Shown here: positions 3,876 through 43,649 of the stretch, one piece after another
Position numbering within the stretch: the first letter of the stretch is position 1
How the letters are laid out: every line of letters starts with the position of its first letter
Assembly (NCBI GenBank): GCA_016177405.1
Contig: JACOVG010000011.1
Span: 7,910 to 71,909, forward strand
Direction: 5' to 3'
DNA: 64,000 nt
DNA from: Candidatus Omnitrophota bacterium
GTDB lineage: Bacteria; Omnitrophota; Gorgyraeia; 1-14-0-20-64-10
Program-made: the position numbers and the translations under genes
The notes under the pieces: model-generated
The model's database searches: none
Told to the model about the DNA's origin: nothing
The model's input: the letters and a program-made list of their open reading frames with translations, nothing else

Positions 3876-5180
3876 TTACGATTTTCCCTTGAGGACCTTG
3901 AGCCCCTTCAAAAGATCCACCGCCCTCAAAACGAGGGAGTCCTCTTCGGGTTTCGCGCCGGAGCGGCTCTCCGGAGGGGCCTTCTCCTCCACCACCACAT
4001 CCGGCTCCAGGCCCTTGCCGTGGATGATGACGCCCGAGGGGGTGTAATACTTGGCGGTGGTCAGCCGGATCGCCGAGCCGTCCTTCAGGGGAATCACCGT
4101 CTGCACCGAGCCCTTGCCAAAGGTCCGGGTCCCCATCAGGATCGCCCGATGGTGATCCTTCAGGGCGCCGGCCACAATCTCCGAGGCGGAGGCGGAGCCG
4201 CCGTTGACCAGGATCACCATGGGAAAGGCGATGAGCGGGCTCTCGGAGCGGGAGATGAACTCCAGGTTCTGGCCCTTCACGCGCCCCTTGGTGGAGACGA
4301 TCGGCTTGCCCTTCTCCAGGAAGAGCTCGGCCACCTCCACCGCCACGTCCAGAAGCCCCCCGGGGTTGTTGCGCAGATCCAGAATCAACCCCTCGAATCC
4401 GCTCACGCGCAGCTCCTGCAGGGCCCTGCGCAGATCGGCCGGCGTGTTGTCCTGAAACTCGGTGATCCGGACGTAGGCGATCCCCGGCGCGGCCCAGCGG
4501 GCCTGGCGGACCGAGTGGATCTGAATGATCGAGCGGGTCAGGGTGACGTCGAAGAGGCGGTTCTCCGATTCCCGGAGGATCGTGAGGGTGACCCGGGTTC
4601 CGGGCCGGCCCCGGAGGCGCTTCACCGCCTCGTGCAGAGAGACATCCCGGATCGCCTGGCCCTCGATCTTGGTGACCTTGTCGTTGGGCTTCAGGCCCGC
4701 CTTGGCGGCGGGCGTGTCGTCGATGGGGGCGACCACCGTCAGGTTGCCGTCCTTGGAAACCGAGATCTCCAGGCCCACCCCGCCGAACTCCCCCTTGGTA
4801 TCCACCTGCATCTCGGTGAAGGCGTCGGGATCCAAAAACTGGCTGTGGGGATCGAGCGAGCCCACCAGCCCCCGCAGGGCGCCGTAGATCAACTCCTTGG
4901 GGGCCACCGGGTCCACGTATTCGTTCTGGATGATGGTGATCGCCTCGGCCAGGATCTCCACCTGGTCGTAGATCGCCTCCTGCGCGGCCTTGAGGGCCTG
5001 CGAGGCCCGGGGAGCAAAGAGGAAGGAAGACAAAAACAGAAGGAAGAGGGGGACGCTCCAAAAAGGGACACTCTTATTCGCACGTGCAGCCCTCAGGAAC
5101 GCTCCTGTACGAAGGTGTGTCCCAAAATGGAGCGTCCCCTTTTCCTTTCCGCGCGGACCACGCGAGCGAAGCAATCTCAT
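3876..5180 (-). CDS. ctpA: carboxyl-terminal processing protease (S41 family)
   Basis: PDZ domain followed by S41 catalytic region (GLILDLRNNPGG, GSASASEIVAGAL, FGKGSVQ). ATGA overlap with the gatB stop. Long basic N-region before the hydrophobic segment leaves the start slightly uncertain. Confidence 0.85.
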   Translation of the reverse strand: MRLLRSRGPRGKEKGTLHFGTHLRTGAFLRAARANKSVPFWSVPLFLLFLSSFLFAPRASQALKAAQEAIYDQVEILAEAITIIQNEYVDPVAPKELIYGALRGLVGSLDPHSQFLDPDAFTEMQVDTKGEFGGVGLEISVSKDGNLTVVAPIDDTPAAKAGLKPNDKVTKIEGQAIRDVSLHEAVKRLRGRPGTRVTLTILRESENRLFDVTLTRSIIQIHSVRQARWAAPGIAYVRITEFQDNTPADLRRALQELRVSGFEGLILDLRNNPGGLLDVAVEVAELFLEKGKPIVSTKGRVKGQNLEFISRSESPLIAFPMVILVNGGSASASEIVAGALKDHHRAILMGTRTFGKGSVQTVIPLKDGSAIRLTTAKYYTPSGVIIHGKGLEPDVVVEEKAPPESRSGAKPEEDSLVLRAVDLLKGLKVLKGKS

Positions 5181-6631: not shown

Positions 6632-8067
6632 CGGATTTTCGGCTCCCGCTTGTGCCAGCCGGACGCCTGCTCGTACGCGTGAGCCGCCTGAAAGAGCTCG
6701 GCCTCCGCGAAGGGCTTGGCGATGAGCTGCATCCCGATGGGAAGCCCCGCGGGGGTGAACCCGCACGGCAGCGACAGGGCCGGCACGCCGGCCAAGTTCA
6801 CCGAGATCGTGTAAATATCGGAAAGGTACATGGTGAGGGGGTCCGAGAGCTTCTCCCCCAGCCGGAAGGCAGGCGTGGGGGAGGTGGGGGTCATCAGAAG
6901 ATCCACCGCCTCGAAGGCCTTGTCAAAATCCCGCCGGATCAAGGTCCTCACCTTCAGGGCGTGAGCGTAATAGGCCTCGTAGTAGCCGGAGGAGAGGACA
7001 AAGGTTCCCAGGATGATCCGCCGCTTCGCCTCCGGGCCAAAACCCTGCCCACGCGTCTTGCCGTACATCGCGAGCAAGGAATCCCCTTCCCCGGACCGGT
7101 AGCCGTACTGCACCCCGTCGAAGCGGGCGAGGTTGGAGCTCGCCTCGGCCGTGGCCACAATGTAGTAAGTCGGGATGGCGTACTCGGTGTGAGGAAGCGA
7201 TACCTCTTGGATCTTGAGCCCCAGCTTCCTGAATTGCTCAAGGGCCGCCTCCAAGGCTTTTTTCACTTCCGGGTCCAGGCCGTCAATCAGATATTCCTTC
7301 GGAACCCCAACCCGAAGCCCCTTAACCGGCTTCTTAAGCTCCTCCAGGCAGTTGGGAACCTTCGCCTCCACCGAGGTGGAATCACGCTGGTCAAAGCCGG
7401 CGATGCCGGAAAACAAAAGGGCGCAGTCCTCCACCGTCTTGGCGATCGGCCCGATCTGATCCAGTGACGAGGCGAAGGCGATCAGCCCATACCGGGAGAC
7501 CCGGCCGTACGTCGGCTTTAAGCCCACCACCCCGCAGAAGGAGGCCGGCTGGCGGATCGATCCGCCGGTGTCCGAGCCCAAGGCAAGCGGCGTCATGCCG
7601 GCGGCCACCGCCGCGGCCGAGCCGCCGCTGGAGCCGCCAGGGACCCTGGCGGTATCCCAGGGGTTCAGGGTGGGTCCGTACGAGGAGTATTCGCAGGAAG
7701 AGCCGAAGGCAAACTCGTCCATGTTGGCCATCCCCAGAAGGATGGCGCCGGCCGCCTTAAGCCTTTCAATCACGGTGGCGTTGTAGGGCGGCCTGAACCT
7801 CGCCAGGATCTTGGAGGCGCAGGTGGTGGGCACCCCTTCGACACAAAGGTTGTCCTTGACCAGGACCGGGACCCCCCAGAGCGGGCCCTTGGACTTTCCG
7901 TCCGCCGTGAGCGCCCCGGCCTGCTTCCGGACAAACTCCGGGTCAAACCAGACCAGCGCCTTGAGCTTGGGCTGGAGCTCCTCGATCTTTTTGATAAAGG
8001 TCTCGGCAATCTCCGGGGGAGCGGCCTTGCCTGTTTGGTAGATAGCTTGAATTTCGCGGGCTGTCAT
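6628..8067 (-). CDS. gatA: Glu-tRNA(Gln) amidotransferase subunit A (amidase signature)
   Basis: Amidase signature GGSSGGSAAAVAAG and GSDTGGSIRQPASFCG. Start placed at MTAREIQAIY (8067). Confidence 0.9.
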   Translation of the reverse strand: MTAREIQAIYQTGKAAPPEIAETFIKKIEELQPKLKALVWFDPEFVRKQAGALTADGKSKGPLWGVPVLVKDNLCVEGVPTTCASKILARFRPPYNATVIERLKAAGAILLGMANMDEFAFGSSCEYSSYGPTLNPWDTARVPGGSSGGSAAAVAAGMTPLALGSDTGGSIRQPASFCGVVGLKPTYGRVSRYGLIAFASSLDQIGPIAKTVEDCALLFSGIAGFDQRDSTSVEAKVPNCLEELKKPVKGLRVGVPKEYLIDGLDPEVKKALEAALEQFRKLGLKIQEVSLPHTEYAIPTYYIVATAEASSNLARFDGVQYGYRSGEGDSLLAMYGKTRGQGFGPEAKRRIILGTFVLSSGYYEAYYAHALKVRTLIRRDFDKAFEAVDLLMTPTSPTPAFRLGEKLSDPLTMYLSDIYTISVNLAGVPALSLPCGFTPAGLPIGMQLIAKPFAEAELFQAAHAYEQASGWHKREPKIR

Positions 8068-8144: not shown

Positions 8145-8438
8145 TTAACTCGCCTCAATGATCTTCGGCACCTTGAAGAAGTTCCCCTCTCGGGAAGGCG
8201 CGTTGGCCAGGGCCTGCTCGGGCTTTAACGAGGGCTGAACCTCATCCTCCCGGAAGACGTTGGCCAGGGCCTCGACGTGACTGGTGGGGGGAACCCCTTG
8301 GGTCTTGGCTTCTTTCAGCTTCTCGACATAGGCCAGGATCTCGTCGAGCTCCCGGGTGAACTTCTTCAGCTCCTCGGGGGTGAGCTCGATCCTCGCCAGG
8401 AGGGCCAGATACTCAACGTCCTTAACGGTGATCGCCAT
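8145..8438 (-). CDS. gatC: Glu-tRNA(Gln) amidotransferase subunit C
   Basis: 97 aa. MAITVKDVEYLALLARIELTPEE motif typical of GatC. Operon position upstream of gatA. Confidence 0.85.
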   Translation of the reverse strand: MAITVKDVEYLALLARIELTPEELKKFTRELDEILAYVEKLKEAKTQGVPPTSHVEALANVFREDEVQPSLKPEQALANAPSREGNFFKVPKIIEAS

Positions 8439-8574: not shown

Positions 8575-8599
8575 GGGTGCCAGGCTTTAGACTGGCACC
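8575..8599 (-). other. stem-loop GGTGCCAG-N8-CTGGCACC about 7 nt after the giant-gene stop
   Basis: 8-bp GC-rich inverted repeat. No U-tract follows it on the minus strand, so it is not a canonical intrinsic terminator. The stem sequence recurs at 37950-37976. Confidence 0.4.
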
Positions 8600-8606: not shown

Positions 8607-11600
8607 TTAGGCGAAGCGAGCTCTGAGGATCTCCCAGGCGATCTCTTCGGTGATGAAGCGCATCTCGGTGAAGTAATCGGTCACATCAAGCAGGATGTGT
8701 TTTCCGGAAGAGACCGACCGATTGCTCTCTCTCCAAACCGCAAGAACTTGGGTAGCAAGGAGAGGCAACAACTTGAAGGGGATCGGGCTATCGACACGAT
8801 CCTCCGGTCGCACCGCGTAAACGGTGTCTGAATCCGCAGGCTCCGAAGCTGCGGGTGGCCCCGCCATCAACTTAACAATCCGATAGTCGGATTCTCTGTA
8901 ATGGCTTTCCTGATCGTCTGAAAGCAGATCGACCGCCACCACGGGAAACTTCCCAAGCCCAGTAAGGTTCTGGCCAATCGATTTGAGATGCTCGCCGAGA
9001 TGGGTAATCCCGCTTTTCATCAAAGAGGAATCAACGAGAAGGGCGATTCGGGTTCTATCTTTTGTAATCTCCTCTACCGAGTTACCTGCTCGATCCACCA
9101 CGGCCTTTGCTGCGTTACGCTCCTGCCCTGTCAGCACCTCCTCATAATAGCCCCCTAACAATCCCCCTTCTATGATGGGCGGCTCCTCCTTCCCCTCCTC
9201 CAGCCCGCCAGCGGGGCCCTCCGCCGCAACAGCGGCCTCCTCTGGCAGAAGCAGGAATCCACCCACCAGATCCTCGCGGCTGTATTGCTTCTCGAACGCG
9301 CCATCCGCCGGGGTGATCTGCTCTGCGAACTTCAAAAAGGCACTGCCATTGTCTCCCAGCGCGGCCACTTGAAAATGCTGCCCGGTTTCTCGGCCAATCA
9401 GAACGTCCCCCACCTGAAGGGCGGTAGCGGCATCAATGAACCGCGCCCCTTCCGGGGCGCTCACCGCCTTCCCCTCCTCCAGCCCAGCGAAGGAGTCTTC
9501 GCCCCCAATATGATCCCCGGGTCCAAAGCTTTCCTCCGAAACCACCTCTTCTTCATCGCCCCCAGCAGGCCCCGCGTGAACTGGAATGGATTGTTCGGCA
9601 GAGAGCTTCCGTGTTCTGTGAGGGCGGCTAAGCCTCTGGATTAAGTCCGTTGTTTCGTCCCATTTTTCCCACGCGGCATCTCCCAGTGGATTAAACCAAT
9701 CAAGCCGCCCGGGACGAGGGGGCAATTTAAACATTCCTAGGGTGGCTTCAGCGTCCCGGAGAAAACCGGAACGAGCTTGGAATTGGGCGATCTCGCAGTA
9801 AGCCCTGACTTTTCCACCGTCAGTTGCTTCGCTTCCGTTCACAATTCCCCTTGCCTTTTCGAACGTCTGCTCGGCCAATGTTTTCTTTTTTAACCCAGCA
9901 GAAGCAAACCCCCCGCCGACTTCCCCAAGTATCTGCGCGACACAGAAAACGGTATCATCGGTAAGGCGATCCATGTCCCAAGGCAGCGTGTATCCCTTCC
10001 GGAGGAAACCCACTTTCTTTAATTCTCCAATCAAGAGCTCAAGGAACGATCTGTCATTGATAGGGTATTGGTAGTTGCGCCCCAGCTTGCCAAGCGCTTG
10101 ACCAAAGGTACCGATGGCTTCTGCCTCCAAACCCCTCTCTGCCTGCCTTCCAGCCACATAGGCCATGGCTTCAATTTTATCGCCAACGGCGTCCCGCCCG
10201 ATGAAACCTTCAGCTTCTCGAAGGGCGTCATTGAACCTTCCTTTGTCCGCGTACTTTATGACGTCAGCCATTCGAAGCTTATTCGCCTCACGCTGCTTTT
10301 CCACTATCCCCCAGTCCTCCTCCAGGCCGGAGTACCGCCTAAAAGCTTGCGCTCCGTCGTGCCACTCACGAACCGCATCTTCAGCCCGTGCGGCGTCCCA
10401 ACCTCTTTCAAGCATGAGATCACGTACTCGGGACGAAAGTCCCGCTTGGGTTGCGGGGTCGAGGCCAACGTAGGCTGCAATCCCAGTCCTGTCATCGTTG
10501 GAGCGAACTCGCCTTTCGGACTCCGTTTGATGAGGCCCGCTTTCTTCGAGAAGCTCTCTCTTCCGCGCCTGCTCTTCTTCCCTCATCGCTTCGCGAACAC
10601 GGTTCGCAAAAGTGGGAGCTTTTTCTGTCCCCTCGGGCGACTTGGATAATTTAAGCTGGCTGGCGGTGGCGAGCAAAACGGAACCTGTATCTTCTACCGA
10701 GACGCTCTCTTTTAAGCCAAGGGGCTTGAGGTTGACAAACCAACGATCGTTCGTGCCAAGAAAGAAATCGCCCGTCTCTTTCTCCCAGCCCTCAAAGGTT
10801 CCTATGACGACCCGGCCCTCTTGAATCGCCAGAATGAGGTCACCTTGCGCAAGTTCCTCCGTGTCAAGACTAGAAACATACACGGCACCAAGCCTTCCTA
10901 AAACATACCGGATAAAGTCTTGTTCAAGCTCCCCGACACCCAAGATTCTCCGGGCCCCGGCTTGATCGCCAATGGCCACCGTCTTCTTAAGGTCAGCAAG
11001 GACCTGGGCCGGAAGCTTCGGCTGCCTCTCCTCCAGCCCGGCGGCGGGGGGGAAAAATTGGGCGCCATTCAAGGATGATCTCTCAATGGGGTGCTCCTGG
11101 CCTTCTCGATCTACGAGCACAACGGGCTGAGCTAAGCGTCCAGTCAGCCCAAGATGGTGAGTGAGCTTAACCCGAAAGCTCCCCTTGAGAGCAGGTGTTG
11201 GATCAACGATAACGGTGTCTGCATACAGAATGGTATTAGACCTGACCCGCTGCTGCCCCTCCTCCTGGAGCGAACCGGAAGATTGGGGCTGAAGGGCATA
11301 GGCATCGCCAGGGAGAAGGACCAACTCTGGAATTGCGCCGGCCGGGAAGAACTGGCTCCAGATGTACAAACCCTTCTCCGAAGCCACAGGAAGATGCTGT
11401 TTAAGAAATGGGGCCAGCGGGCTGCCTATCTGTCCTTCCCCCAAGGGAAGCGCCCTGCCCTCTACCCAAACCTCCAGGCGATAGTCTTGATCGTGCTTGA
11501 CCTTCATCTTCTCCAGTGCCGAGATGGCGCCATAACTGGTTGGAATGATCCCGCGCCGGCGAAGAGCCAGAGAGAGCGCGGCCATGTACTGGTTGTACTG

Positions 11601-14600
11601 CTGCGCGGTAAGATGACCCTCGTCGCGCAAACGAACCAGGTCGTGATGCCATCGTTCCGATTGATCTGGAAGAAGCAGCCCCCGGGCGAGGAGTGTCCTG
11701 GCCTCTACCGACTCTAGGAAACCTGGAAAGCGGGCCTGAATTTTTTCTTTCGGTGGAACGCGTATCTTTCCCAAATAGCCGGCGATGGCGGCAAGGGCTT
11801 TGTATTTGTTGACAACTCCAAGGACGGAGCGGGCAGCGGCAAGGGCTTCGGTGAAGGTGGGCCCTGGATCCAAGCCGGCCGATGCCTGGTGTTCAGCGAT
11901 GGCGACAAGGGCTTTGTATCTGTCGGAAGCTCCATTGATAGAGCGGGCAACAACAAGGGCTTCAGTGAATTGGCCAACCGATGCCTGGTGTTCAGCGATG
12001 GCGACAAGGGCTTCGTAATCGAAGGTACGACTACTAATGGAGCGGGCACCGTCAAGGGCTTCGATGAAGGTGGGCCCTGAATCTAGGCCGGCCGATGCCA
12101 GGTGTTTGGCGATGGCGGCAAGGGCTCTGGATTTGTCAGGTTTGCCATAGTCGGAGTAGCTGGAGACGATGGAGCGGGCGGTGGCAAGGGCTTCGGTGAA
12201 TTGGCCGGCCGATGCCTGGTGTTCAGCGATGGCGGCAAGAGCACTGGATCTGTCAGACTTGCTATAGGCGTCGCTGGGGGCGATGGAGCGGGCGGTAGCA
12301 AGAGCTTTTGTGAATTGGCCGGCCAATGCCTGGTGTTCAGCGATGGCGGCAAGGGCTTTGTGTTTGTCGTTATCTCCACGGATGGAGCGGGTAGCGGCAA
12401 GGGCTTCGGCGAAGGTGGGCCCTGGATCTAGGCCGGCCGATGCCTGGTGTTCGGCGATGACGGCAAGAGCTTCGTATTCGTTAAACTCTCTATTGACAGA
12501 GTAGCTGGGGTTGGTGGAGCGAATGGTGGCAAGGGCTTCAATGAATTGGCCGGCCGATGCCTGGTGTTTGGCGATGGCGGCAAGGGCTTTGGATCTGTCC
12601 CAATTGCCGATGGAGCGGGCAGTGGCAAGGGCTTCGGTGAATTGGCCGACCGATGCCTGGTGTTCAGCGATGGCGGCAAGGGCTTCGGATTTGATGGCAT
12701 CTTCATCTTCTTCAGTGATGGAGCGAGCGACGGCAAGGGCTTCGGTGAAGGTAGGCCCTGGATCTAGGCCGGCCGATGCCTGGTGTTCGGCGATGACGGC
12801 AAGGGCTCTGGATCTGCCAGACTTGCTATAGGCAGAATCGGTGTTGTAGATGGGATCGATGAAGCGGGCAGCGTCAAGGGCTTCGATGAAGGTGGGCCCT
12901 GGATCTAGGCCGGCCGATGCCTGGTGTTCGGCGATGACGGCAAGGGCTCTGGGTCTGTCGGCAGTTTCAGGGATGGAGCGGGCGGTGGCAAGGGCTTCGG
13001 TGAATTGGCCGGCCGATGCCTGGTGTTCGGCGATGGCGGCAAGGGCTTCGTATTCGTCGCCAACTTCACTGATGGAGCGGGCAACGGCAAGAGCTTCGGT
13101 GAAGGTGGGCCCTGGATCCAAGCCAGCCGATGCCTGGTGTTTGGCGATGGTGGCAAGGGTTTCGTATTCGCCAGACTCGCCAGAGGCAAGGTAGTTGGGC
13201 CTGATGGAACGGGCGGTGGCAAGGATTATTGTCCAACGCATATGTGTTATTAATTCCACCTCCTCCAGCCCGGCGGCAGGGCCCTCCGCCGCAACAGCGG
13301 CCTCCCTTGACAGAAGCAGGAATCCACCCACCAGCTCCTCGCGGCTGTACCGCTTCTCGAACGCGCTATCCTCCGGGGTGATCTGCTCTGCGAACTTCAA
13401 AAAGGCACTGCCGTTGTCTCCGAGCGCAATCACTTGAAAATACTGCCGGGTTTCTTGGCCAATCAGAATGTCCCCCACCTGAAGGTCGGTATGGGCATCC
13501 ATGAACCGCGCCCTCTCCGGGGCGCTCACCGCCTTCCCCTCCTCCAGCCCGGCGGCTGGTTTAATAAGGGTAGAAATGTTGTATTTGAAATTTTCTTCAC
13601 CCTCCCCCCTCCAGTCGAGAATAAACTCAACCTGTTCAATCTTAGTTAGTGATTGGAGGGCTGGCGGAATTGTGCGATCCTGCCACGAGCCAGGTCCCCC
13701 AGGGGTAGACTCGGGGTGCTCAAGCAAGGCATGAAAGACACCGATTCGTGCTTTCGGCGCTTCCTTCGCCATCTTTAGAATCCAATTGACAATAGGGCGA
13801 TTCGGACCATCAGCATTAGCATACACAAGAACCTCATTGGCTTTCCCAGACTTCAACAATCTCTCTGCAACATCCCATTCGGCCCGAACTGGAATGAGAC
13901 TTTGCTCCCTGTTGCCAGATTCCTTAACCCATTGCTCATGTGATTTCCAAGCCCATTGGGTGTCTCCCACTAACAGGATAATCCGCGCCTCCTCCAGCCC
14001 GGCGGCCGGGCCTTTGGGCTTGGATTTGGAAAGAGCCCTCCTCAAATCGCCTCCAACCTTCCTCCGCTGTTTCAGCGGCTGTAATCCAAGAAGCCGAACC
14101 ATCCCCTTCCCTAGACTGGCCATCCCTCCACCTAGGCTGGCTGCTCCTTTTAGAGTGGCACGTGCGGGGGAAGTTGTGATCTTTGCCGGCAGTTTAGCAG
14201 CGTGTCGGTCCTTCTCTTCCTCCAGCCCGGTGGTGGGGCGAGCGTTCTCCACGTCAGTCTTATCAAGGACAGCATAACCTTTCTCGAGCACCCCATCCGC
14301 CGTCGCATCTTCCATCGTCATGACCAAGAAGGTAAGGATCCTGTCCCCCGAGAAGCCTGATGGCCAGACAACGATCTTTTCCAACTTAAGAAGAAAGCCA
14401 GGTGATTCCCATTTCCCTTGAGTCTTTTTCTTTTGAAGAATCGCCATGATCCGCGGAAGATTTTGTAGGACATAAGTCAAATCTGAAGAATCCTCCCCGG
14501 CCTGTCTAATGACGGAGCTCCGAACAGCAACGAAAGTTTCCTTGGAAGCGCTACCCCTGTTCAATTTCGGATCCCACCCCAAGAATTCTCTAAGATTCTT

Positions 14601-15536
14601 GGGAACAGTTAGATTCAAAGTAAGTTGGGCCGTCCCAAGCTGCCCTTTCCCTGGCATTTTGGGAGTGGGCTCTACACCTCTTTTACGCAAGGTAGGCTGA
14701 AATCCAGCTGGCCCTATGAAGACCAAATCCACCTCAGCATCTGGTGAGCCAGCCGGCTTCTGAACCGCCTCACCCGACTCGATCGAAATCAGGTTTCCTA
14801 TGAGGGAGGCGACCTCTCCCTCAGAAATCTGCCCCTCCTCCAGCCCGGTGGCGGGGCGGGCTTCAGCAAGGGCGTTAAGACGGGCGCCAAGTCCCTCTAG
14901 GGAAGTCGAATAATCCAACAGCCGGTCCTGACGTCGCAAAAAACCTAACTCGCCAATTAGATCAGCCCTATCATCTGGAAACGCGATGATGGGCGGCAAT
15001 CGCTTTAGATCTTTATCCTCAAGTAAAGTTTTGAGAAACTGCATGGCGCGGCCGTTCATGCTGCCTGGAAACAGGATCACCCCGCCAAAAGAGGTTCCTT
15101 TAAACGCTTCAAGCGGATCCCCTTTGGGCGTCCGCAAAACAACCCCACGCCTGCCGACCAGCCGGTGACCTCCACCAACCAACCATATGTCAACGGCGTC
15201 CTTGAAGCTTACAACGTCAAACTTCTCCGGTTCATCCACCACCACCAGCCATTTCAGACCCTCCTCCAGCCCGGCGGCGAGGTCTTCGAGAGGTTCAGGG
15301 CGGGCGGGAGTTACCGTGGACGCGGTTTGGGGTTGAGCAGGAACAACGAGTTGAGCCAGGCGGCGGATGGCTTGGCCGGGACTCTGGAAGACTTCGTTGA
15401 GCTCTTCGAGGCCCGTGGCCTCGGCGGCTGCCTCCTGGCGGAAGGCCAACGCGGGGCTGGGCGCGGCGAGGGTAAGCGCCAAAAGAAGGGCTGTGAAACG
15501 GCTTGCGGCCTTTATCGGGGAGTTGCGCATTCTCAT
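8607..15536 (-). CDS. giant secreted modular protein (about 2,309 aa) of unknown function, punctuated by (P/A)(A/T)(A/T)GLEE motifs, with tandem helical repeats and an internally duplicated module
   Basis: Uninterrupted 6.9-kb ORF, consistent with the codon usage of neighbouring genes (by eye). Sec-type signal peptide MRMRNSPIKAASRFTALLLALTLAAPSPALA from the ATG at 15536; the ORF track starts at a TTG at 15548. Eleven GLEE motifs at aa 46, 93, 235, 441, 517, 667, 760, 1504, 1741, 2022 and 2115, using ORF-track numbering. No catalytic motif recognised by eye. Confidence 0.7.
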   Translation of the reverse strand: MRMRNSPIKAASRFTALLLALTLAAPSPALAFRQEAAAEATGLEELNEVFQSPGQAIRRLAQLVVPAQPQTASTVTPARPEPLEDLAAGLEEGLKWLVVVDEPEKFDVVSFKDAVDIWLVGGGHRLVGRRGVVLRTPKGDPLEAFKGTSFGGVILFPGSMNGRAMQFLKTLLEDKDLKRLPPIIAFPDDRADLIGELGFLRRQDRLLDYSTSLEGLGARLNALAEARPATGLEEGQISEGEVASLIGNLISIESGEAVQKPAGSPDAEVDLVFIGPAGFQPTLRKRGVEPTPKMPGKGQLGTAQLTLNLTVPKNLREFLGWDPKLNRGSASKETFVAVRSSVIRQAGEDSSDLTYVLQNLPRIMAILQKKKTQGKWESPGFLLKLEKIVVWPSGFSGDRILTFLVMTMEDATADGVLEKGYAVLDKTDVENARPTTGLEEEKDRHAAKLPAKITTSPARATLKGAASLGGGMASLGKGMVRLLGLQPLKQRRKVGGDLRRALSKSKPKGPAAGLEEARIILLVGDTQWAWKSHEQWVKESGNREQSLIPVRAEWDVAERLLKSGKANEVLVYANADGPNRPIVNWILKMAKEAPKARIGVFHALLEHPESTPGGPGSWQDRTIPPALQSLTKIEQVEFILDWRGEGEENFKYNISTLIKPAAGLEEGKAVSAPERARFMDAHTDLQVGDILIGQETRQYFQVIALGDNGSAFLKFAEQITPEDSAFEKRYSREELVGGFLLLSREAAVAAEGPAAGLEEVELITHMRWTIILATARSIRPNYLASGESGEYETLATIAKHQASAGLDPGPTFTEALAVARSISEVGDEYEALAAIAEHQASAGQFTEALATARSIPETADRPRALAVIAEHQASAGLDPGPTFIEALDAARFIDPIYNTDSAYSKSGRSRALAVIAEHQASAGLDPGPTFTEALAVARSITEEDEDAIKSEALAAIAEHQASVGQFTEALATARSIGNWDRSKALAAIAKHQASAGQFIEALATIRSTNPSYSVNREFNEYEALAVIAEHQASAGLDPGPTFAEALAATRSIRGDNDKHKALAAIAEHQALAGQFTKALATARSIAPSDAYSKSDRSSALAAIAEHQASAGQFTEALATARSIVSSYSDYGKPDKSRALAAIAKHLASAGLDSGPTFIEALDGARSISSRTFDYEALVAIAEHQASVGQFTEALVVARSINGASDRYKALVAIAEHQASAGLDPGPTFTEALAAARSVLGVVNKYKALAAIAGYLGKIRVPPKEKIQARFPGFLESVEARTLLARGLLLPDQSERWHHDLVRLRDEGHLTAQQYNQYMAALSLALRRRGIIPTSYGAISALEKMKVKHDQDYRLEVWVEGRALPLGEGQIGSPLAPFLKQHLPVASEKGLYIWSQFFPAGAIPELVLLPGDAYALQPQSSGSLQEEGQQRVRSNTILYADTVIVDPTPALKGSFRVKLTHHLGLTGRLAQPVVLVDREGQEHPIERSSLNGAQFFPPAAGLEERQPKLPAQVLADLKKTVAIGDQAGARRILGVGELEQDFIRYVLGRLGAVYVSSLDTEELAQGDLILAIQEGRVVIGTFEGWEKETGDFFLGTNDRWFVNLKPLGLKESVSVEDTGSVLLATASQLKLSKSPEGTEKAPTFANRVREAMREEEQARKRELLEESGPHQTESERRVRSNDDRTGIAAYVGLDPATQAGLSSRVRDLMLERGWDAARAEDAVREWHDGAQAFRRYSGLEEDWGIVEKQREANKLRMADVIKYADKGRFNDALREAEGFIGRDAVGDKIEAMAYVAGRQAERGLEAEAIGTFGQALGKLGRNYQYPINDRSFLELLIGELKKVGFLRKGYTLPWDMDRLTDDTVFCVAQILGEVGGGFASAGLKKKTLAEQTFEKARGIVNGSEATDGGKVRAYCEIAQFQARSGFLRDAEATLGMFKLPPRPGRLDWFNPLGDAAWEKWDETTDLIQRLSRPHRTRKLSAEQSIPVHAGPAGGDEEEVVSEESFGPGDHIGGEDSFAGLEEGKAVSAPEGARFIDAATALQVGDVLIGRETGQHFQVAALGDNGSAFLKFAEQITPADGAFEKQYSREDLVGGFLLLPEEAAVAAEGPAGGLEEGKEEPPIIEGGLLGGYYEEVLTGQERNAAKAVVDRAGNSVEEITKDRTRIALLVDSSLMKSGITHLGEHLKSIGQNLTGLGKFPVVAVDLLSDDQESHYRESDYRIVKLMAGPPAASEPADSDTVYAVRPEDRVDSPIPFKLLPLLATQVLAVWRESNRSVSSGKHILLDVTDYFTEMRFITEEIAWEILRARFA
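9195..9485 (-). repeat. direct repeat copy B (encodes module D copy 2, aa 2022-2118 of the giant protein)
   Basis: About 290 nt, roughly 90% identical at the DNA level to 13260-13550. Protein GKAVSAPEGARFIDAATALQVGDVLIGRETGQHFQVAALGDNGSAFLKFAEQITPADGAFEKQYSREDLVGGFLLLPEEAAVAAEGPAGGLEE. The out-of-frame ORFs 9172-9372(+) and 13195-13437(+) mirror each other and confirm the duplication. Confidence 0.8.
11760..13170 (-). repeat. tandem array of about 12-13 helical repeats (32-47 aa units; consensus ALAAIAEHQASAG[LDPGPT]FTEALATARSI...) within the giant gene
   Basis: Repeated peptide units read directly in the translation. The array corresponds to the cluster of mirror-image out-of-frame ORFs on both strands between 11714 and 13253. 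Two alternating unit types, with or without the LDPGPT insert. Confidence 0.8.
13260..13550 (-). repeat. direct repeat copy A (encodes module D copy 1, aa 667-763 of the giant protein)
   Basis: GKAVSAPERARFMDAHTDLQVGDILIGQETRQYFQVIALGDNGSAFLKFAEQITPEDSAFEKRYSREELVGGFLLLSREAAVAAEGPAAGLEE. Partner of 9195-9485, about 3.8 kb away in the same gene. Confidence 0.8.
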
Positions 15537-15553
15537 TGGGCTATACAAGAGGA

Positions 15554-15582
15554 AGTATGGCCTGCCCTTTTTGAAAAGTCAA
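15554..15582 (-). promoter_or_regulatory. putative sigma70-type promoter for the giant gene (TTGACT-N17-CATACT)
   Basis: On the minus strand the -35 TTGACT lies at 15582-15577 and the -10 CATACT at 15559-15554, with a 17-nt spacer. The predicted +1 is about 11 nt upstream of the ATG at 15536 and no SD is visible. Low-confidence sequence-only call. Confidence 0.25.
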
Positions 15583-15624: not shown

Positions 15625-16494
15625 CTAACCCCGCAAGACCCTCTGGAGACGCCCCATCTCCGCCAGGTCGAAGGTTTCGGGGCGGCGGACCGGGTCTATG
15701 CCGGCGGCCCGGAGGCGATCGGCCAGCTCCTGCTTGCCGATGAGATTTCTCGCCCTCGCGGGCTCGAAATGACCGAAAGCCAGAGCATTCAGGAGGGTCT
15801 TGCGGCGGTGGGTGAAGATGAGGCGCACCAGTTTCAGGACGGCCTCCTCTTCCTCGGTCGGAACAACCGGCTTCTCCAGCGGATCAAGCTGGAGGACCGC
15901 CGAGGTCACCTTCGGCTGGGGATAGAAGCAGTTGGGCGGGATCAAGAAGGCGATGGAGGGCTGGAAGGCCACGCCAACCAGCAGGGTGAGGCTGGAATAT
16001 TCCTTGGTGCTTGGCTTGGCCACGATCCGCTGGGCCACCTCTTTCTGGATGGTGAGAACCGCCCGCTTCACCCAGCGCCTCTCCTTCAGCAGATACTCCA
16101 GGATGGGGCTCGTCATCGAGAAGGGGATGTTGCCCACGACCAGCAGCGACTTCTCGATACCGGCGGCGTACGATTCCAGGCCCAGATCAAGGATGTCGGA
16201 CTGGACGATTTTCTTAAGATTCGGACTCTCCTTGAACCGGTCGGTCAGCACCTGAACAAACTTGGCATCCCGTTCGACGGCAAAGAGCTCCGCGCCGGTG
16301 GCCAGCAAGGCCTCGGTGAGCGCCCCCAGCCCCGCTCCGATCTCCAGAATCTTATCCCCGGCGCCAGCCCCGATCGCCAGCGCGATCCGCGCGAGGATCC
16401 TCGGGTCCACCAGGAAGTTCTGCCCCATCCGCCGGGGCGAGATCGCCAGGTGGTACTGCCGGCACAGCTCCTTGATCGCCCTCGAGTTCAACAT
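15625..16494 (-). CDS. rsmA: 16S rRNA (adenine1518/1519-N6)-dimethyltransferase
   Basis: MGQNFLVDPRI, EIGAGLGALT and VGNIPF motifs of KsgA/RsmA. Confidence 0.9.
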   Translation of the reverse strand: MLNSRAIKELCRQYHLAISPRRMGQNFLVDPRILARIALAIGAGAGDKILEIGAGLGALTEALLATGAELFAVERDAKFVQVLTDRFKESPNLKKIVQSDILDLGLESYAAGIEKSLLVVGNIPFSMTSPILEYLLKERRWVKRAVLTIQKEVAQRIVAKPSTKEYSSLTLLVGVAFQPSIAFLIPPNCFYPQPKVTSAVLQLDPLEKPVVPTEEEEAVLKLVRLIFTHRRKTLLNALAFGHFEPARARNLIGKQELADRLRAAGIDPVRRPETFDLAEMGRLQRVLRG

Positions 16495-22950: not shown

Positions 22951-23303
22951 CCTGATTTCGTCTTGGGGATACGCACACGGGGGGCATCGGCCCACAGCCG
23001 GTCCAAACCGTAGAAGAGACGCTGTTCCGGCAGGAAGAGGTGCCCTACGACCGAACCGTAATCCAACAACACCCACCCCCCCTCCGGGACCCCCTCCCCA
23101 TGGTGAGGCTCCCTGCCCCGAAGGGACAGCCGTTCCCGGATGCGGTCGGCCATGGAGCGAATCTGGGTGGTGGACGAGCCGTTTGAAAGGACAAAGAAGT
23201 CGAAGCTGAAGGAAAGCTTCCTTAAATCCAGAATCGCCAACCCCTCGGCCTTCACCTCAACGGCGGCTTGGGCCATGGCGATGGCGATTTGGCGGGAGGT
23301 CAC
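22947..23303 (-). CDS. rsfS: ribosomal silencing factor RsfS (Iojap)
   Basis: 118 aa. LDLRKLSFSFDFFVLSNGSSTTQIRSMADRI and GWVLLDYGSVVGHLF motifs. Confidence 0.85.
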   Translation of the reverse strand: MTSRQIAIAMAQAAVEVKAEGLAILDLRKLSFSFDFFVLSNGSSTTQIRSMADRIRERLSLRGREPHHGEGVPEGGWVLLDYGSVVGHLFLPEQRLFYGLDRLWADAPRVRIPKTKSG

Positions 23304-23337
23304 CCCCCCGCCCCTGCTGGGGTGCGGACGCCCAAGA

Positions 23338-23520
23338 CTACTTGGGCTTGAGGATGCGGTAGAGGCCGGTCCCGCAATCCGGGCACTTGCCCTTCATGGC
23401 CGGGCGACCATTCTTCATGGTCACCTCCTGCGCCTCCTTCATCTCTTTCGAGGCCTTACATTTCACGCAATAAGCTTCCATGAGTTCTTTTCCTCCTGTT
23501 TTCCGCTTGGAATTTATCAC
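23338..23520 (-). CDS. small zinc-ribbon protein (CxxC...CxxC), function unknown
   Basis: 60 aa with CVKCK...CPDCG. Compact lysine-rich peptide; hypothetical. Confidence 0.45.
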   Translation of the reverse strand: MINSKRKTGGKELMEAYCVKCKASKEMKEAQEVTMKNGRPAMKGKCPDCGTGLYRILKPK

Positions 23521-23535
23521 GCCGCTCGCGCGGTG

Positions 23536-24525
23536 TCAACCCCGCCCCTCGTGGATCTCCCCGACGATTTCCTCCACCAGGTCCTCCAGCGTCACCAGCC
23601 CCAGCGCCTTGCCGCCGGCGTCCACCACGATGGCGATCTGGAGCTTGCGCTTCTGGAAGGTGAGCAGCAGGTCGGTCACCCGCAGGGTCGGGGGCACCTC
23701 CAGGGGCGGATGGATCAGATCCTGCAGGACGATGAGCCACCCTTCCCTCCAGATGTGCACCAGCTCCTGGGCGTAGATCACCCCGACGATCCTGTCCGGC
23801 GTCTGGCGGTAAACCGGGATCCGGGAATGCCCCTCCTCCGTCAGGACGGTCAGCACCTCGTCGTGGCTGGCCGTCTCCGGAACCACCACCACCCGCGCGA
23901 GGGGAACCATGACGTCGCCCACCTTCAGGTCCCCGAACTCAAAGATCCGGTGGAGCATCATCCGCTCGTGCTCGCCCAAGACCCCCTCCTCCTTGCCCAT
24001 TTCAATCATGAGCTTGATCTCCTCCTCGGTGATGAGGGGCGAGCGGGGCGAGATCGGAACCCCGATCCGCTTCAGGACCGCGTAGGTCATCCGGGTGACC
24101 GAGCCGGCCACCGGCCGGAAGACCGACACCAACAGCGACATGACCGGCGCCACCTGCAGGGAAACGCGATCGGCGTGCCGGGAGGCGTAGACCTTGGGGA
24201 AGACGTCGGTCAGGATCAGGATGATGCTGCCGGCAATGAGGGAAGCCGCCGCCACCCCGGCACTGCCCCCCAGCCAGGCCACGCAGGCCGCCGTCACGAT
24301 GGAGGTGAGCGCGGCGTTCACGAAGTTGCTTCCCACCAGGATCGTCGTGATCACCTGATCGATCTGGGCGACCAGCTTCTCCACCATCCTGGCCCGCTTG
24401 ACCTTGCGATCCACCAGGTGCCGCAGGCGCAGCTTCGAGATCCCCACCAGGGCGATCTCCGATAAAGAGAGGAAGGCCGAAACCGCCACCAGCACCCCCG
24501 CCACGATCAGCTCCGAAATCGTCAT
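23536..24525 (-). CDS. CNNM/DUF21 transmembrane domain + tandem CBS protein (HlyC/CorC family, lacks CorC_HlyC C-terminal domain)
   Basis: Start at MTISELIVAGVLVAVSAFLS (24525), abutting the nadD stop. The ORF-track N-terminal 93 aa is an over-extension. Confidence 0.8.
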   Translation of the reverse strand: MTISELIVAGVLVAVSAFLSLSEIALVGISKLRLRHLVDRKVKRARMVEKLVAQIDQVITTILVGSNFVNAALTSIVTAACVAWLGGSAGVAAASLIAGSIILILTDVFPKVYASRHADRVSLQVAPVMSLLVSVFRPVAGSVTRMTYAVLKRIGVPISPRSPLITEEEIKLMIEMGKEEGVLGEHERMMLHRIFEFGDLKVGDVMVPLARVVVVPETASHDEVLTVLTEEGHSRIPVYRQTPDRIVGVIYAQELVHIWREGWLIVLQDLIHPPLEVPPTLRVTDLLLTFQKRKLQIAIVVDAGGKALGLVTLEDLVEEIVGEIHEGRG

Positions 24526-29084: not shown

Positions 29085-30095
29085 TCACAAGCGCTTCACC
29101 CAGGCGAGCCATTCCTTTTCGAGGGCGGCGGGGTCCACGTGGTACTCGGCCTTCAGGGCATCGGAGATGGGGATGCCCCAGCTCAAGCGCGTGAGGAGCG
29201 AGACCAGCCCGGTCACCCCCGCCTTCTTCACCAGGAATTGAACGATGAGGTACCCCTGGCCGTAAAGGGCCTGAAGGGCGGCCGTGGAACCGGTGTACTG
29301 CTCCCGCCAGAGCGCCTCCCAGCCCGGGAGGGCTCCCTTTCGCAGCGCCAAGCGGGTTTGCGAAAGGTCGGGCGGCCGGACCCTCGCCTCCTGGTAGGTG
29401 GCGATCCCCTCGTTCAGCCACGTGGGGCACTTCCCCTTGGCGAGGTCGTGGACCAGCACGTGGGTGTACTCGTGCCAGAGAACCGCCTTCAAGACGCCGG
29501 TCGCCTGGAGATTCCGGGTCAGCGGCAGGCGGATCTTCCCATCGTAAAGCCCGGCGACCTGGTGGCCGACCCCCTTGACCTTCTCGAAGTCCTCCTCCGG
29601 ATAAAGGATCACCGTGATGGCGTAGGCCGGAAAATACTGGAACGACTGCCCCACCAGCCGGTGGGTGTCCCTCAAGAGCTGTTTCAGCTCTCCCAGATCC
29701 ACCGGGGTTTGCCCCTCGGCGAAGCGGACCACAAAGGGGTGGGTGTCGGAGCGGGCGAGGTCCTTCTCCACCTTGAGCTCTTTCCTCACCTTCGCCAGCG
29801 ACTCCTGAATGTCCGTCCGGGAGGGGGCGAGCTTGGCGGCCTGCTCCAGCTCCGCCAGCGCCTTCAGAAGCTCCTGGCGAAGGTAATAAAGCTCCCCCAA
29901 GAGAAGGTGGGCGTCCACGTGCCGGGGCTCTTCCGCGACCGCCTCCGCGGCATACCGGTAGGCCTCCTCCAGCTTCCGGTCCTGGTAGGCCGCCAGGGCC
30001 CTGGAGAAAGCGGAGGTCTCCTCCGAGGAGAGAGCGGCAAACGGCAGACCGCAAGCGGTCAGCAAAAGCGCAACGGCAGCCCAAAAACGCTTCAT
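29085..30095 (-). CDS. TPR-repeat lipoprotein with putative HExxH zinc-metallopeptidase (Peptidase_MA-like) domain
   Basis: Lipobox LLTACG at the start MKRFWAAVALLLTAC (30095). TPR-like N-terminus. WHEYTHVLVHD followed by WLNEGIATY. Confidence 0.6.
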   Translation of the reverse strand: MKRFWAAVALLLTACGLPFAALSSEETSAFSRALAAYQDRKLEEAYRYAAEAVAEEPRHVDAHLLLGELYYLRQELLKALAELEQAAKLAPSRTDIQESLAKVRKELKVEKDLARSDTHPFVVRFAEGQTPVDLGELKQLLRDTHRLVGQSFQYFPAYAITVILYPEEDFEKVKGVGHQVAGLYDGKIRLPLTRNLQATGVLKAVLWHEYTHVLVHDLAKGKCPTWLNEGIATYQEARVRPPDLSQTRLALRKGALPGWEALWREQYTGSTAALQALYGQGYLIVQFLVKKAGVTGLVSLLTRLSWGIPISDALKAEYHVDPAALEKEWLAWVKRL

Positions 30096-31594
30096 ACCGG
30101 CTGGATCTTGACGGTCTCCAGGTGGAGCGTGGGATCGGCCTTCACCACCACGCGGCCGTGGTACTCCTTCTCGATCTGGGCGATCGAGTTGCGGTCCTCG
30201 TTGAAGAGGCGGCCGGCCAGATCCGGATGGACCGTCACCTCGACCGTCGGCTTCTTGGAGGTCAGGAAGGTCTTCTTGATCTGGCGCAGGGCCGAGATCG
30301 AAACGGTCAAGGCCGAGCGGATGGAGCCTCGCCCCTGGCAATAGGGGCACTCCTGGAAATTGACCGACGCGAGCGACCGGCGGACCCTCTGCCGGGTCAT
30401 CTCCACCAGGCCAAACTCCGACAGGAAGATGAGGTTGGTCTTGGCCCGGTCTTTGCGCATGGCGTTCTGCAGGGTGTTGAAGATCTTCTGGCGGTGGGAC
30501 TGGGCGTTCATGTCGATGAAGTCGATGATCAGGATCCCGCCCAGATCGCGCAGGCGGATCTGGCGGGGAATCTCCTTGGCCGCCTCCATGTTGGTCACGA
30601 AGGCGGTCTCCTCCAGGTTCTTCCTTCCGGTGAATTTCCCGGAGTTCACGTCAATGGCCACCAGGCTCTCCGTCTGCTCAAAGATCACGTGGCCGCCGCT
30701 GGGGAGCTCCACCTTGCGGTTGTAGAACCGCTCGATCTCCCGCTCGAGGCCCCGCTTCTCAAACAGGGGCACGGCCTCGTGGTAATATTCCACCCGCGAG
30801 CGCAGGTGAGGCTCGGTCTGCGCCAGAAACCGCTGGATCTGCTGGAACTCCGGCTTGGAGTCCACCAGCATCTTGGTGACCTCCTCGGTCAGGTGGTCCC
30901 GGACGATCCGAAGGGTCAGGTTGTACTCCTCATGGATCAAGGCCGGGGAAACCGAACGGACCGAGCGGACCTTGACCCGCTTCCACAGGGAAAGCAGGAA
31001 CCTCAAGTCCCCGGCCAGCTGCTTGCGCTGGGCCCCCAGGGCGGCGGTGCGCACGATGAGCCCCATGTCGGTGGGGGCGCGAAGCTCCCTCAAGAGCGCC
31101 CTCAACCGGTCCCGCTCCTTGTGGTCATCCACCCTCCGGGAGATGCCGAAGGAGCCGTCCATCGGCATCAGGACCAGGAACCGCCCGGGCAGCGTCAGGT
31201 GGGTGGTGAGGCGCGGCCCCTTCGTGCCGAGGGGCTCCTTGATCACCTGGACCAGGATCTCCTGCCCCACCCGCACCAGATCCTGAATCCTGGGCTGGAC
31301 ATGCCCGGCCAGCGGGGCGGCCGCCGGTTTTCCCGACTCCATCTGGACCGCCTCCACGACCTCCGGAGAGGGCCCGACGATGTCGGTCAAATACAGAAAG
31401 CCGTTCTTCCCGATTCCCAAATCCACAAAGCAGGCCCGGATCCCCGGCACGATGGAGGTCACCTTGCCTTTGTAGATGTTGCCCAGAAGGGGCGCCGGGG
31501 TGGAGCGCTCCACGTAAAACTCGTCGAAGGCCCCCTCCTGCACCACCGCCACCCGGGTTTCCATCGGTTCCACATTGATCAAAAGTTCCTTCAT
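30092..31594 (-). CDS. rng: ribonuclease E/G family (RNase G-like, 500 aa)
   Basis: S1 domain (GNIYKGKVTSIVPGIRACFVDLG). DNase-I-like catalytic core. Zn-link CPYCQGRG. Confidence 0.85.
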   Translation of the reverse strand: MKELLINVEPMETRVAVVQEGAFDEFYVERSTPAPLLGNIYKGKVTSIVPGIRACFVDLGIGKNGFLYLTDIVGPSPEVVEAVQMESGKPAAAPLAGHVQPRIQDLVRVGQEILVQVIKEPLGTKGPRLTTHLTLPGRFLVLMPMDGSFGISRRVDDHKERDRLRALLRELRAPTDMGLIVRTAALGAQRKQLAGDLRFLLSLWKRVKVRSVRSVSPALIHEEYNLTLRIVRDHLTEEVTKMLVDSKPEFQQIQRFLAQTEPHLRSRVEYYHEAVPLFEKRGLEREIERFYNRKVELPSGGHVIFEQTESLVAIDVNSGKFTGRKNLEETAFVTNMEAAKEIPRQIRLRDLGGILIIDFIDMNAQSHRQKIFNTLQNAMRKDRAKTNLIFLSEFGLVEMTRQRVRRSLASVNFQECPYCQGRGSIRSALTVSISALRQIKKTFLTSKKPTVEVTVHPDLAGRLFNEDRNSIAQIEKEYHGRVVVKADPTLHLETVKIQPV

Positions 31595-41481: not shown

Positions 41482-41775
41482 TTAAGGATTGGGGTTAAGC
41501 TCATAGCGTTGGTCAAAGTTCGGGACCGTGATGAACTCGCTCAACTGCGCGTAGCTGGCCGGAAACCGCCCGTACACCAGCCGGTAGGCCTGCACCGCCT
41601 GATAGATCGAGCCAAGCTCCTTCTCCATCCGGGCATCCTCGGCGTTGTTCCGGTACCGGGCGACGCCGAAGACCGCCGCGGCTGCCACAAGGCTCACGAT
41701 GCCGCCGGTGATCGCCAGCTCGACCAGCGTGTACCCGCGCTTATTTTTTCGACTCTTGGACCACCACATCGCCAT
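41482..41775 (-). CDS. small pilin-like protein (prepilin-type N-terminus)
   Basis: KRGYTLVELAITGGIVSLVAAAAVFGV class III signal-peptide-like N-terminus. 97 aa. The 5' end overlaps the S8 gene by about 35 nt, so the start is uncertain. Confidence 0.5.
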   Translation of the reverse strand: MAMWWSKSRKNKRGYTLVELAITGGIVSLVAAAAVFGVARYRNNAEDARMEKELGSIYQAVQAYRLVYGRFPASYAQLSEFITVPNFDQRYELNPNP

Positions 41776-43646: not shown

Positions 43647-43649
43647 CGG

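Follow-up and report, generated by a model that had tools for sequence, protein, structure and literature searches.

Our analysis of a 64,000-nucleotide (nt) stretch of DNA from a Candidatus Omnitrophota bacterium (contig JACOVG010000011.1; the whole stretch is hereafter the window) suggests that a giant open reading frame (ORF) between ksgA and gatC is a mosaic of unrelated, interchangeable modules, which would be connected, without a change of reading frame, through a single conserved element of about 20 nt whose translation contains the motif GLEE. Taken alone, the proposal that this element serves as a cassette junction is one that we consider quite likely. In its more complete version, which we favor with caution, the gene is a mosaic of interchangeable modules with an in-frame cassette junction that possibly also acts as a separation signal for the modules.

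Exchange of modules at the junctions

The ORF is on the minus strand, starts with the ATG at 15536 and encodes 2,309 amino acids (aa); NCBI lists it as HYS41_02595, a hypothetical protein of 2,307 aa in a Candidatus Omnitrophica metagenome-assembled genome (MAG). GLEE occurs in this protein 11 times (aa 42, 89, 231, 437, 513, 663, 756, 1500, 1737, 2018 and 2111), as opposed to the 0.16 occurrences expected from composition. Elsewhere in the six frames of the window there are only two GLEE, and no copies of the junction are present in the window outside the giant ORF. A preliminary description of the stretch, made from its letters, had reported an ORF of about 2,309 aa in which eleven GLEE motifs form a regular, sequence-defined punctuation; the ORF is real, the count of motifs is correct and the punctuation is non-random, and the motif positions given there are all larger by four because they were counted from a TTG at 15548. 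The stretches between motifs are 47-744 aa long. By BLASTP, the modules (M1 to M11) are mutually unrelated except for M6 and M10, which are 84% identical and correspond to the one duplicated module that had been described, and for a weak similarity between the repeats of M7 and M9.

The modules that are shared among relatives differ in order and number. For instance, the relative P0002, which occupies the ksgA-gatC interval of a genome with a KsgA 86% identical to that of the window, has the order signal peptide-M1-M5-X-M3-M11, as compared to signal peptide-M1-M2-M3-M4-M5-M6-M7-M8-M9-M10-M11 in the giant protein, and P0004 consists of M4, a novel module and M11. At the DNA level, M5 can be aligned between the window and the relative L001 with 88.5% identity (401/453) from junction to junction, and identity drops to 38% and 27% directly outside. 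The homology borders of M3 and M4 coincide with junctions at the protein level only, and their neighbors differ from genome to genome. We regard it as shown that the units exchanged by recombination are bounded by the junctions.

The synonymous divergence (dS) and the ratio of nonsynonymous to synonymous divergence (dN/dS), calculated for the window versus L001 by the Nei-Gojobori method, are in line with separate module histories. For ksgA, gatC and gatA, dS is 0.35-0.43 and dN/dS is 0.14-0.19. Within the giant gene, dS is 0.09 for M5 (compared to L001:4404-4829), 0.73 for M3, 1.13 for the signal peptide together with M1 and 3.05 for M11. Because these values are discordant, parts of the giant gene have different histories. 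M5 has a dN/dS of 1.66 over 141 codons, a value given without a significance test, and its combination with the low dS indicates a putative recent transfer between lineages plus diversifying or relaxed selection. With a dN/dS of 0.24-0.62, M3, M4 and M11 are real coding sequence under selection.

Conservation of the junctions is limited to about 20 nt, and the sequences on either side are unrelated. The consensus is CCN GCC GCC GGG CTG GAG GAG G, which encodes (P)AAGLEE, and eight of the 11 GLEE sites share the identical 12-mer GGGCTGGAGGAG, mostly after GCC GCC. Given the codon usage of the giant gene itself, this 12-mer has P = 0.011 per site (binomial p = 4e-14); if codon usage is instead taken from the housekeeping genes on either side, p is 4e-7; in the rest of the giant gene, CTG accounts for 15% of Leu and GAG for 49% of Glu codons. 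The same 12-mer is found at boundary motifs in L001 and L003 (three sites each). L184 and L199 share the boundary core GGG CTG GAG, and the fourth residue of the motif varies between E, G, A and R; the fourth codons (GAG, GGG, GGA, GCA, AGG) are purine-rich and begin with G in all but one case, which points to a possible constraint at the nucleotide level or to homogenization. Thus, in the window and in the relatives L001, L003, L184 and L199, boundary motifs read GGG CTG GAG. Motifs within modules, i.e. the leader after the signal peptide and SASGLEE inside M11, are encoded by other codons; the leader motif ATGLEEL is kept in L001 as a peptide, with identical codons.

The peptide is conserved as well. 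In the more distant L002, 10 sites are kept, eight as GLEE and two as GMEE, and the eight GLEE vary in their codons (GGT/GGC/GGG, TTG/CTG, GAG/GAA). Because L002 keeps GLEE by synonymous codons, the peptide would be under selection too, and we suggest that the junction is constrained both as DNA and as peptide. Across the family, 54 junctions contain information only at positions -4 to +4 ([S/P][P/S]-A-A-G-L-E-E-[G/A]); some read AAGLEA or AGLEA, and G[LM]E is enriched 4 to 20 times over composition in every family member.

In our model, recombination from junction to junction, be it inside a single gene or involving alleles or paralogs, would swap, duplicate or delete whole modules with the reading frame intact, because all junctions have the same phase and near-identical sequences. 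M6 and M10 would be the result of one such junction-by-junction duplication. The signal peptide with the GLEEL leader and the terminal alpha/beta domain, which is weakly conserved, would form a fixed framework, with a variable cassette array in the middle, and in this Omnitrophota sub-clade the gene would sit in an insertion hotspot between ksgA and gatC. Among the three explanations in the preliminary description, a linker homogenized by gene conversion comes closest to this model: the conservation at the DNA level and the breakpoints at the junctions fit it.

The octamer GCTGGAGG in the junction core is identical to a Chi variant reported for Haemophilus influenzae. In the window, its minus-strand copies number 20 and its plus-strand copies 2 (11 and 2 outside the ORF). 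A function as a Chi-like hotspot is unsupported; CTG-GAG (L-E) codons on the coding strand can explain the 20:2 skew.

Possible functions of the junction peptide

The junction peptide may be functional in its own right and would then most likely mark the separation of modules, a proposal that we put forward tentatively. In this scenario, the product would be a polyprotein that is cut at its junctions by a dedicated protease or separated co-translationally. The main reason to think so comes from L199. In this relative (L199:5797-5890; OBEQ011121045.1), a complete twin-arginine translocation (Tat) signal, SRRDFFKIGGATAAGSVMMP, opens the third module, 11 residues after KSAAGLEE; it scores 24.2 bits against Pfam TAT_signal (gathering threshold 22.7, E = 3e-5), and the ORF itself begins with a Sec/lipoprotein-type signal peptide. 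A Tat signal is useful only at a free N-terminus. Separation is also suggested by L184, in which a helix-turn-helix (HTH), an HPr and a methyltransferase unit are joined although each usually exists as a separate protein of the cytoplasm. The protease site of a secreted polyprotein that the preliminary description had listed is a plausible candidate, with these autonomous units and the internal Tat signal in relatives speaking for it.

An extension of this idea is a "protein integron", in which one element of about 20 nt would be the recombination joint for the capture, reordering and loss of unrelated genes and, once translated, the separation signal for captured proteins. A protease or the ribosome would separate the modules, and targeting would then be specific to each of them, by Sec, by Tat or without a signal. 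We regard this extension as rather improbable.

A simpler alternative is a passive interdomain linker. Here, the product would be one uncut secreted multidomain protein, PAAGLEE an inherited linker or helix-capping sequence, and the DNA identity a by-product of recombination or gene conversion that lacks a function. The GLEE-like motifs inside the folded C-terminal domain, the negative result of the protease searches in the family members and the fact that the whole family contains one internal targeting signal fit such a linker. However, a passive linker offers no reason to keep eight residues where modules are saturated (dS of M11, see above) or to keep the motif through synonymous codons as in L002; the residues beyond -4 and +4 lack a linker-like composition, and an intact mid-protein Tat signal behind a Sec-type N-terminus is hard to fit with an uncut chain. 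On balance, we think that a purely passive role is unlikely, although less so than the integron-like extension.

The conserved core CUGGAGGAGG could also act in the mRNA. Its strong Shine-Dalgarno-like GGAGG would pause ribosomes and allow domain-wise folding, or would support internal initiation or recoding, by which the modules would be produced as separate proteins. Leu is encoded by YTG in 24 of 26 motifs, by which GGAGG is preserved, and the fourth codon remains purine-rich and, save one, G-initial even where the amino acid changes. By contrast, GGAGG is so common in coding sequence of the window (294 minus-strand copies, of which the giant ORF has 41) that it is not a special signal. Also, there is no conserved RNA structure, junction stability equals the expectation from GC content, Rfam has no match in the window, and an RNA signal needs neither the kept reading frame nor the upstream AA/P residues. 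Internal initiation is rejected because no consistent start codon follows 4-14 nt downstream of the junctions, including those of L199. Frameshifting with termination is rejected because the proximity of +1-frame stops in the window (p = 0.004) is not replicated in L001 or L003. Altogether, a translational signal is improbable.

The preliminary description had also considered an attachment or cross-linking signal. A sortase-like signal of this type would tether the modules to the envelope or couple them with one another, and RPATG and RPTTG at aa 231 and 437 resemble PxTG in sequence. However, the commonest form is PAAG and not PxTG, no motif is followed by a hydrophobic segment (i.e. an anchor) or a charged tail, and the motif is also present in L184, which has cytoplasmic-type modules and no detected signal peptide, its N-terminus being uncertain. 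We therefore consider this explanation to be the least probable of all.

Several observations weigh against our model. Concerning exchange, the breakpoint alignment at the DNA level covers one module, M5; an identity of 12-22 nt is short for RecA-dependent exchange; no recombinase was found beside the giant gene; and the exact giant protein is present in one assembly only. Concerning separation, a scan of the family members revealed no second internal signal and no hydrophobic 19-mer outside the N-terminal signal peptides, so that the Tat signal of L199 is a single case, and it could be a relic of recent gene capture. Pfam and NCBIfam identify no protease domain in any family member, and the fold of the M11 structure model is a generic alpha/beta/alpha one, whose structure matches include no protease. 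Finally, the C-terminal alpha/beta domain itself contains GLEE-like motifs, which follow strands and mark the beginnings of helices; thus, the peptide can be an ordinary structural element.

The restriction of the exact protein to one assembly also fits an assembly chimera, in which a short repeat would have joined unrelated pieces in a short-read MAG. A repeat of 18-22 nt can break assemblies, and the contig of L007 ends inside the motif. Nevertheless, no stop interrupts the 2,309 codons and all junctions are in frame, intact long ORFs of the same architecture (794, 1,468, 1,673 and 1,933 aa) come from independent assemblies of other samples, the modules are under purifying selection, and the k-mers of current assemblers greatly exceed 22 nt. 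A chimera is therefore very improbable.

As for candidate proteases near the gene, the neighbors of the giant gene are housekeeping genes, and ctpA (S41; 3876-5180) is also present where the GLEE gene is absent. The only S8 subtilase of the window (41741-43075, minus strand) has a fervidolysin-type prodomain and lies 26 kb away within a type IV pilus cluster, which includes a secretin (33306-34925), PilM (36929-37936), three T2SSE ATPases (46984-51987) and a PilC-like protein (45785-46981). In the PDB, the subtilase is closest to thermitase and subtilisin, and as a generic subtilisin at this distance it was rejected as a PatA-like partner; as a processing protease it is a possible candidate that lacks support.

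The family, its locus and its modules

The GLEE-punctuated proteins appear from their sequences to be an undescribed family with at least 11 members, and those that can be attributed are from Omnitrophota MAGs. An exhaustive HMMER search with aa 1-760 against 1.84 billion representatives yielded four true relatives (P0002-P0005), in all of which the motif is present in several copies. When metagenomes were scanned for the exact junction 19-mer, this returned mostly chance single matches, and filtering for multiple motifs per strand left seven family loci, including L106, L168, L180, L184, L196 and L199; L007 is a further member. A metagenome scan with an alignment of the C-terminal domain gave no confirmed locus, and in viral contigs the 18-mer gave chance single matches only. 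Word-index searches found only the protein itself (full length) or nothing (33-row motif profile and C-terminal half), results that come from a saturated index and are not evidence of absence. Neither Pfam nor NCBIfam contains a model that covers a family member in full. The giant protein has no Pfam match above noise and no NCBIfam match, in agreement with the earlier remark that no described family with such a punctuation was familiar; likewise, P0002-P0005, L196 and L106 have no Pfam match, and Pfam matches are confined to single modules of L184 (HTH_17, PTS-HPr, methyltransferase) and L168 (TPR). The searchable literature contains no paper that mentions the motif. A phage or plasmid origin was rejected, as there are no phage matches and plasmid matches are to the M7 repeats only.

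The motif is kept in every relative found, so that its absence from orthologs, which according to the preliminary description would refute the idea, was not observed. The punctuation in every member follows [S/P][P/S]AAGLE[E/G/A]. All seven members with the N-terminus in view (the giant protein, P0002, P0005, L106, L168, L199 and L007) have a signal peptide and, at a distance of 10-40 residues from it, a GLEEL-type leader; the partial L196 has the leader motif only. Most members end in an alpha/beta domain, and versions other than M11 are only 15-18% similar to M11. In L184, an excisionase-type HTH, an HPr (above the Pfam gathering threshold) and the core of an S-adenosylmethionine (SAM)-dependent methyltransferase each start at most about 10 residues from a junction. 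At L184:38-1192 and 1451-1580, the GLEE protein, the true N-terminus of which is uncertain and for which no signal peptide was detected, is preceded by a 384-aa ORF without Pfam matches and with HTH-like stretches by eye, and the gene may be linked to a mobile element. P0005 (L004:29-652, 207 aa, no Pfam match) ends abruptly in ...AAVLFITPDGRFVLQRRDDGRRDLSAGGHV, which resembles the beginning of a Nudix hydrolase domain that a stop codon or frameshift has truncated.

The giant gene is an insertion into the housekeeping operon ksgA-gatC in one Omnitrophota sub-clade, as the preliminary description had proposed, because in the outgroups L005 and L006 (KsgA 59-60% identical) the interval is empty and ksgA directly adjoins gatC. 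The gene order of the window is mfd-surA-surA-pdxA-ksgA-[giant ORF]-gatC-gatA-gatB-ctpA, with every gene on the minus strand. The interval is filled in the window, in L001 and in L199 (KsgA 67% identical to that of the window). In L007 (L007:9490-9697; Omnitrophota MAG JACPXU010000118.1) it is apparently filled: an ORF with a signal peptide follows ksgA, and the contig stops in ...ACG GCC GGG CT (TAGL). KsgA was not recovered for L003 and L184; in view are the toxin-antitoxin side of L003, with the GLEE gene upstream of HicAB, and the gatC/toxin-antitoxin side of L184, with the GLEE gene upstream of toxin-antitoxin pairs and gatC. P0003 is at another locus, outside ksgA-gatC. The ksgA-gatC interval would be a general insertion hotspot.

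Small toxin-antitoxin-type genes stand beside the GLEE gene in relatives (L001:2855-3363 and 6786-7129; L003:1978-3122; L184:5951-7490). Between the GLEE gene and gatC these are HicA/HicB, nucleotidyltransferase/HEPN and a Phd/RelE-like pair, and a CopG-like gene is upstream of the GLEE gene in L001. The window itself contains none of these toxin-antitoxin-type genes.

The giant gene has a GC content of 0.57, as opposed to 0.63-0.67 in the flanks, and its product contains two Cys. The Sec signal peptide noted in the preliminary description has, by eye, the expected n/h/c layout (ALA/FR), and the same layout is found in P0002, P0005, L106, L168, L199 and L007. The start codon lacks a Shine-Dalgarno sequence, and an AT-rich stretch upstream of the gene, aaaagttagcttag, is found again in L199. 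The stem-loop after the stop codon is a possible terminator, without a T-run. All feature coordinates are listed in the table.

By sequence, the modules of the giant protein are orphans. Some of them had been described as Rossmann-like, and this holds for the last module: the AlphaFold 2 (AF2) model of M11, based on a three-sequence alignment, is a three-layer alpha/beta/alpha domain with a predicted local distance difference test score (pLDDT) of 83.6 and a predicted template modeling score of 0.81, the other four models being much poorer. For M5, the receiver/flavodoxin-like sequence pattern reappears as beta-alpha-beta-alpha-beta only in a low-confidence AF2 model; the model of aa 85-760, made without an alignment, has a pLDDT of 35 and is unusable. 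In M7, 12-13 helical units of 32-47 aa were found, in agreement with the 12-unit array reported before; they share 31-32% identity with the repeats of cyanobacterial plasmid proteins annotated as NB-ARC and of a Herpetosiphon hypothetical protein.

Table. Coordinates of the giant gene, its junctions and modules, and its flanking genes in the window
Feature	Position	Strand	Remarks
ksgA (RrnaAD), upstream flank	15625..16494	-	Borders the insertion
Promoter-like TTGACT-18 nt-ATACTT	15553..15582	-	16 nt 5' of ATG; putative, read from sequence
Giant ORF, member of GLEE-punctuated mosaic family	8607..15536	-	2,309 aa plus stop
Predicted Sec-type signal peptide, aa 1-31	15444..15536	-	MRMRNSPIKAASRFTALLLALTLAAPSPALA/FR; n/h/c layout by eye
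Leader-type motif ATGLEEL, aa 42	15402..15419	-	GGC CTC GAA GAG, unlike junction codons
Junction 1, aa 89	15261..15278	-	GCC GCC GGG CTG GAG GAG
M2, aa 93-230	14847..15260	-	Putatively receiver/flavodoxin-like by sequence pattern; homolog P0003 aa 338-499, 46% identity
Junction 2, aa 231	14835..14852	-	GCC ACC GGG CTG GAG GAG
M3, aa 235-436	14229..14834	-	Homolog in L001 after the M5 homolog, i.e. inverted order
Junction 3, aa 437	14217..14234	-	ACC ACC GGG CTG GAG GAA
M4, aa 441-512	14001..14216	-	Basic, Gly-rich; homolog in P0004/L003
Junction 4, aa 513	13989..14006	-	GCC GCC GGG CTG GAG GAG; upstream breakpoint of M5 block shared with L001
M5, aa 517-662	13551..13988	-	Beta/alpha; high nucleotide identity to L001 only between its two junctions
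Junction 5, aa 663	13539..13556	-	GCC GCC GGG CTG GAG GAG; downstream breakpoint of M5 block
M6, aa 667-755	13272..13538	-	First copy of duplicated module
Junction 6, aa 756	13260..13277	-	GCC GCC GGG CTG GAG GAG
M7, aa 760-1499	11040..13259	-	Helical repeats at about 11757-13169, then C-terminal part without assignment
Junction 7, aa 1500	11028..11045	-	GCC GCC GGG CTG GAG GAG
M8, aa 1504-1736	10329..11027	-	No assignment
Junction 8, aa 1737	10317..10334	-	TAC TCC GGC CTG GAG GAG; atypical context RRYS
M9, aa 1741-2017	9486..10316	-	Weak helical-repeat similarity to M7
Junction 9, aa 2018	9474..9491	-	TTC GCT GGG CTG GAG GAG
M10, aa 2022-2110	9207..9473	-	Second copy of M6
Junction 10, aa 2111	9195..9212	-	GCT GGC GGG CTG GAG GAG
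M11, aa 2115-2309	8610..9194	-	C-terminal alpha/beta/alpha domain; P0002 and P0004 terminate in direct homologs
Stem-loop GGTGCCAG-N8-CTGGCACC	8576..8599	-	Directly 3' of stop; read from sequence
gatC, downstream flank	8145..8438	-	Borders the insertion

Elsewhere in the window, four ORFs of 343-603 aa have no Pfam match at E <= 1e-5 (23140-24465, plus strand; 38001-39812, minus; 43072-44103, minus; 53696-54949, plus), and two of them are inside or beside the pilus cluster. Peptidase_MA_2 (29085-30350) and RNase E/G (30092-31594), both on the minus strand, overlap by about 260 nt, probably because the start of one or the other is misassigned.

Implications and comparison with known systems

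The giant gene and its relatives may represent a sequence-defined bacterial counterpart of exon shuffling, in which domains would move, duplicate and drop out without damage to the frame, with a joint that is recognizable by eye. The family they constitute would be new and fast-evolving; most of its members have signal peptides, and dN/dS exceeds one in one module. Omnitrophota are thought to live as tiny epibionts or predators, and the GLEE-family proteins are candidates for host interaction. Because the junction repeat seems to break short-read assemblies, as in L007, GLEE genes are probably under-counted and may be truncated in MAGs. Authors who study giant Omnitrophota genes state that cleavage of the products is an open question and that analysis is hindered as long as no cleavage points are known (bioRxiv 10.1101/2023.11.21.568195). 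The candidate boundary motif makes this question testable by proteomics. If the integron-like view were true, polyproteins that are encoded on a bacterial chromosome and share a universal boundary code would be seen here for the first time, and the code would supply the missing cleavage-point information for the giant Omnitrophota proteins.

Functionally, the closest known system would be the MARTX toxins of Vibrio and relatives, with module release being putative in the family described here. MARTX toxins are very large exported proteins of unrelated modules, the repertoire of which is recombined and which are released at inter-module linkers. The module repertoire of the GLEE family is likewise reshuffled between relatives by recombination. 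However, by Pfam the giant protein has neither RTX/glycine-rich repeats nor a cysteine protease domain (Peptidase_C80), it has two Cys only, and it carries a Sec-type instead of a type I signal. Also, its junction is a defined element of eight residues and about 20 nt, while the MARTX linker is loose and Leu-containing.

In the cyanobactin precursor PatE, the flanks of the hypervariable cassettes are nearly invariant as DNA, and the variable cassettes of the giant gene are also bounded by recognition-like sequences that are invariant as DNA. PatE contains the N-terminal recognition motif GLEAS, after which the subtilisin-like PatA cleaves (PMC4282754). The GLEE/GLEA junctions resemble GLEAS, possibly by coincidence. 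By contrast, the cassettes of the giant gene are 47-744 aa in length and several are domain-like, as compared to cores of 6-8 residues, and there is no PatA, PatG or heterocyclase neighborhood around the gene. Viral polyproteins similarly contain unrelated units in one ORF with a short conserved motif at every boundary, and LEE/G would fit a Glu-specific (3C-like) site. However, the giant gene is a chromosomal bacterial gene that has no phage or plasmid relatives, and no dedicated protease was found in cis or adjacent to it.

Short joints also bound variable segments in other systems, for instance the glycine-rich motifs of gp38 in T-even phages and the 17-bp direct repeats of vlsE in Borrelia. 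The GLEE family shares with these the constant ends, the short direct repeats and the variable middle. In those systems homologous variants are exchanged, whereas the GLEE family exchanges unrelated domains, and unlike for vlsE, there are no silent donor cassettes in the window. As in the exon shuffling of animal extracellular proteins, whole domains are moved, duplicated and reordered in frame at joints of one phase, but the giant gene has no introns and its joint is a translated element of 20 nt. The likeness to NB-ARC/STAND proteins concerns M7, the helical repeats of which resemble repeat arms; the giant protein has no NTPase domain, and the array is one cassette among eleven. Thus, the giant family belongs among the recombination-shuffled modular proteins, and the polyprotein reading is the more novel one.

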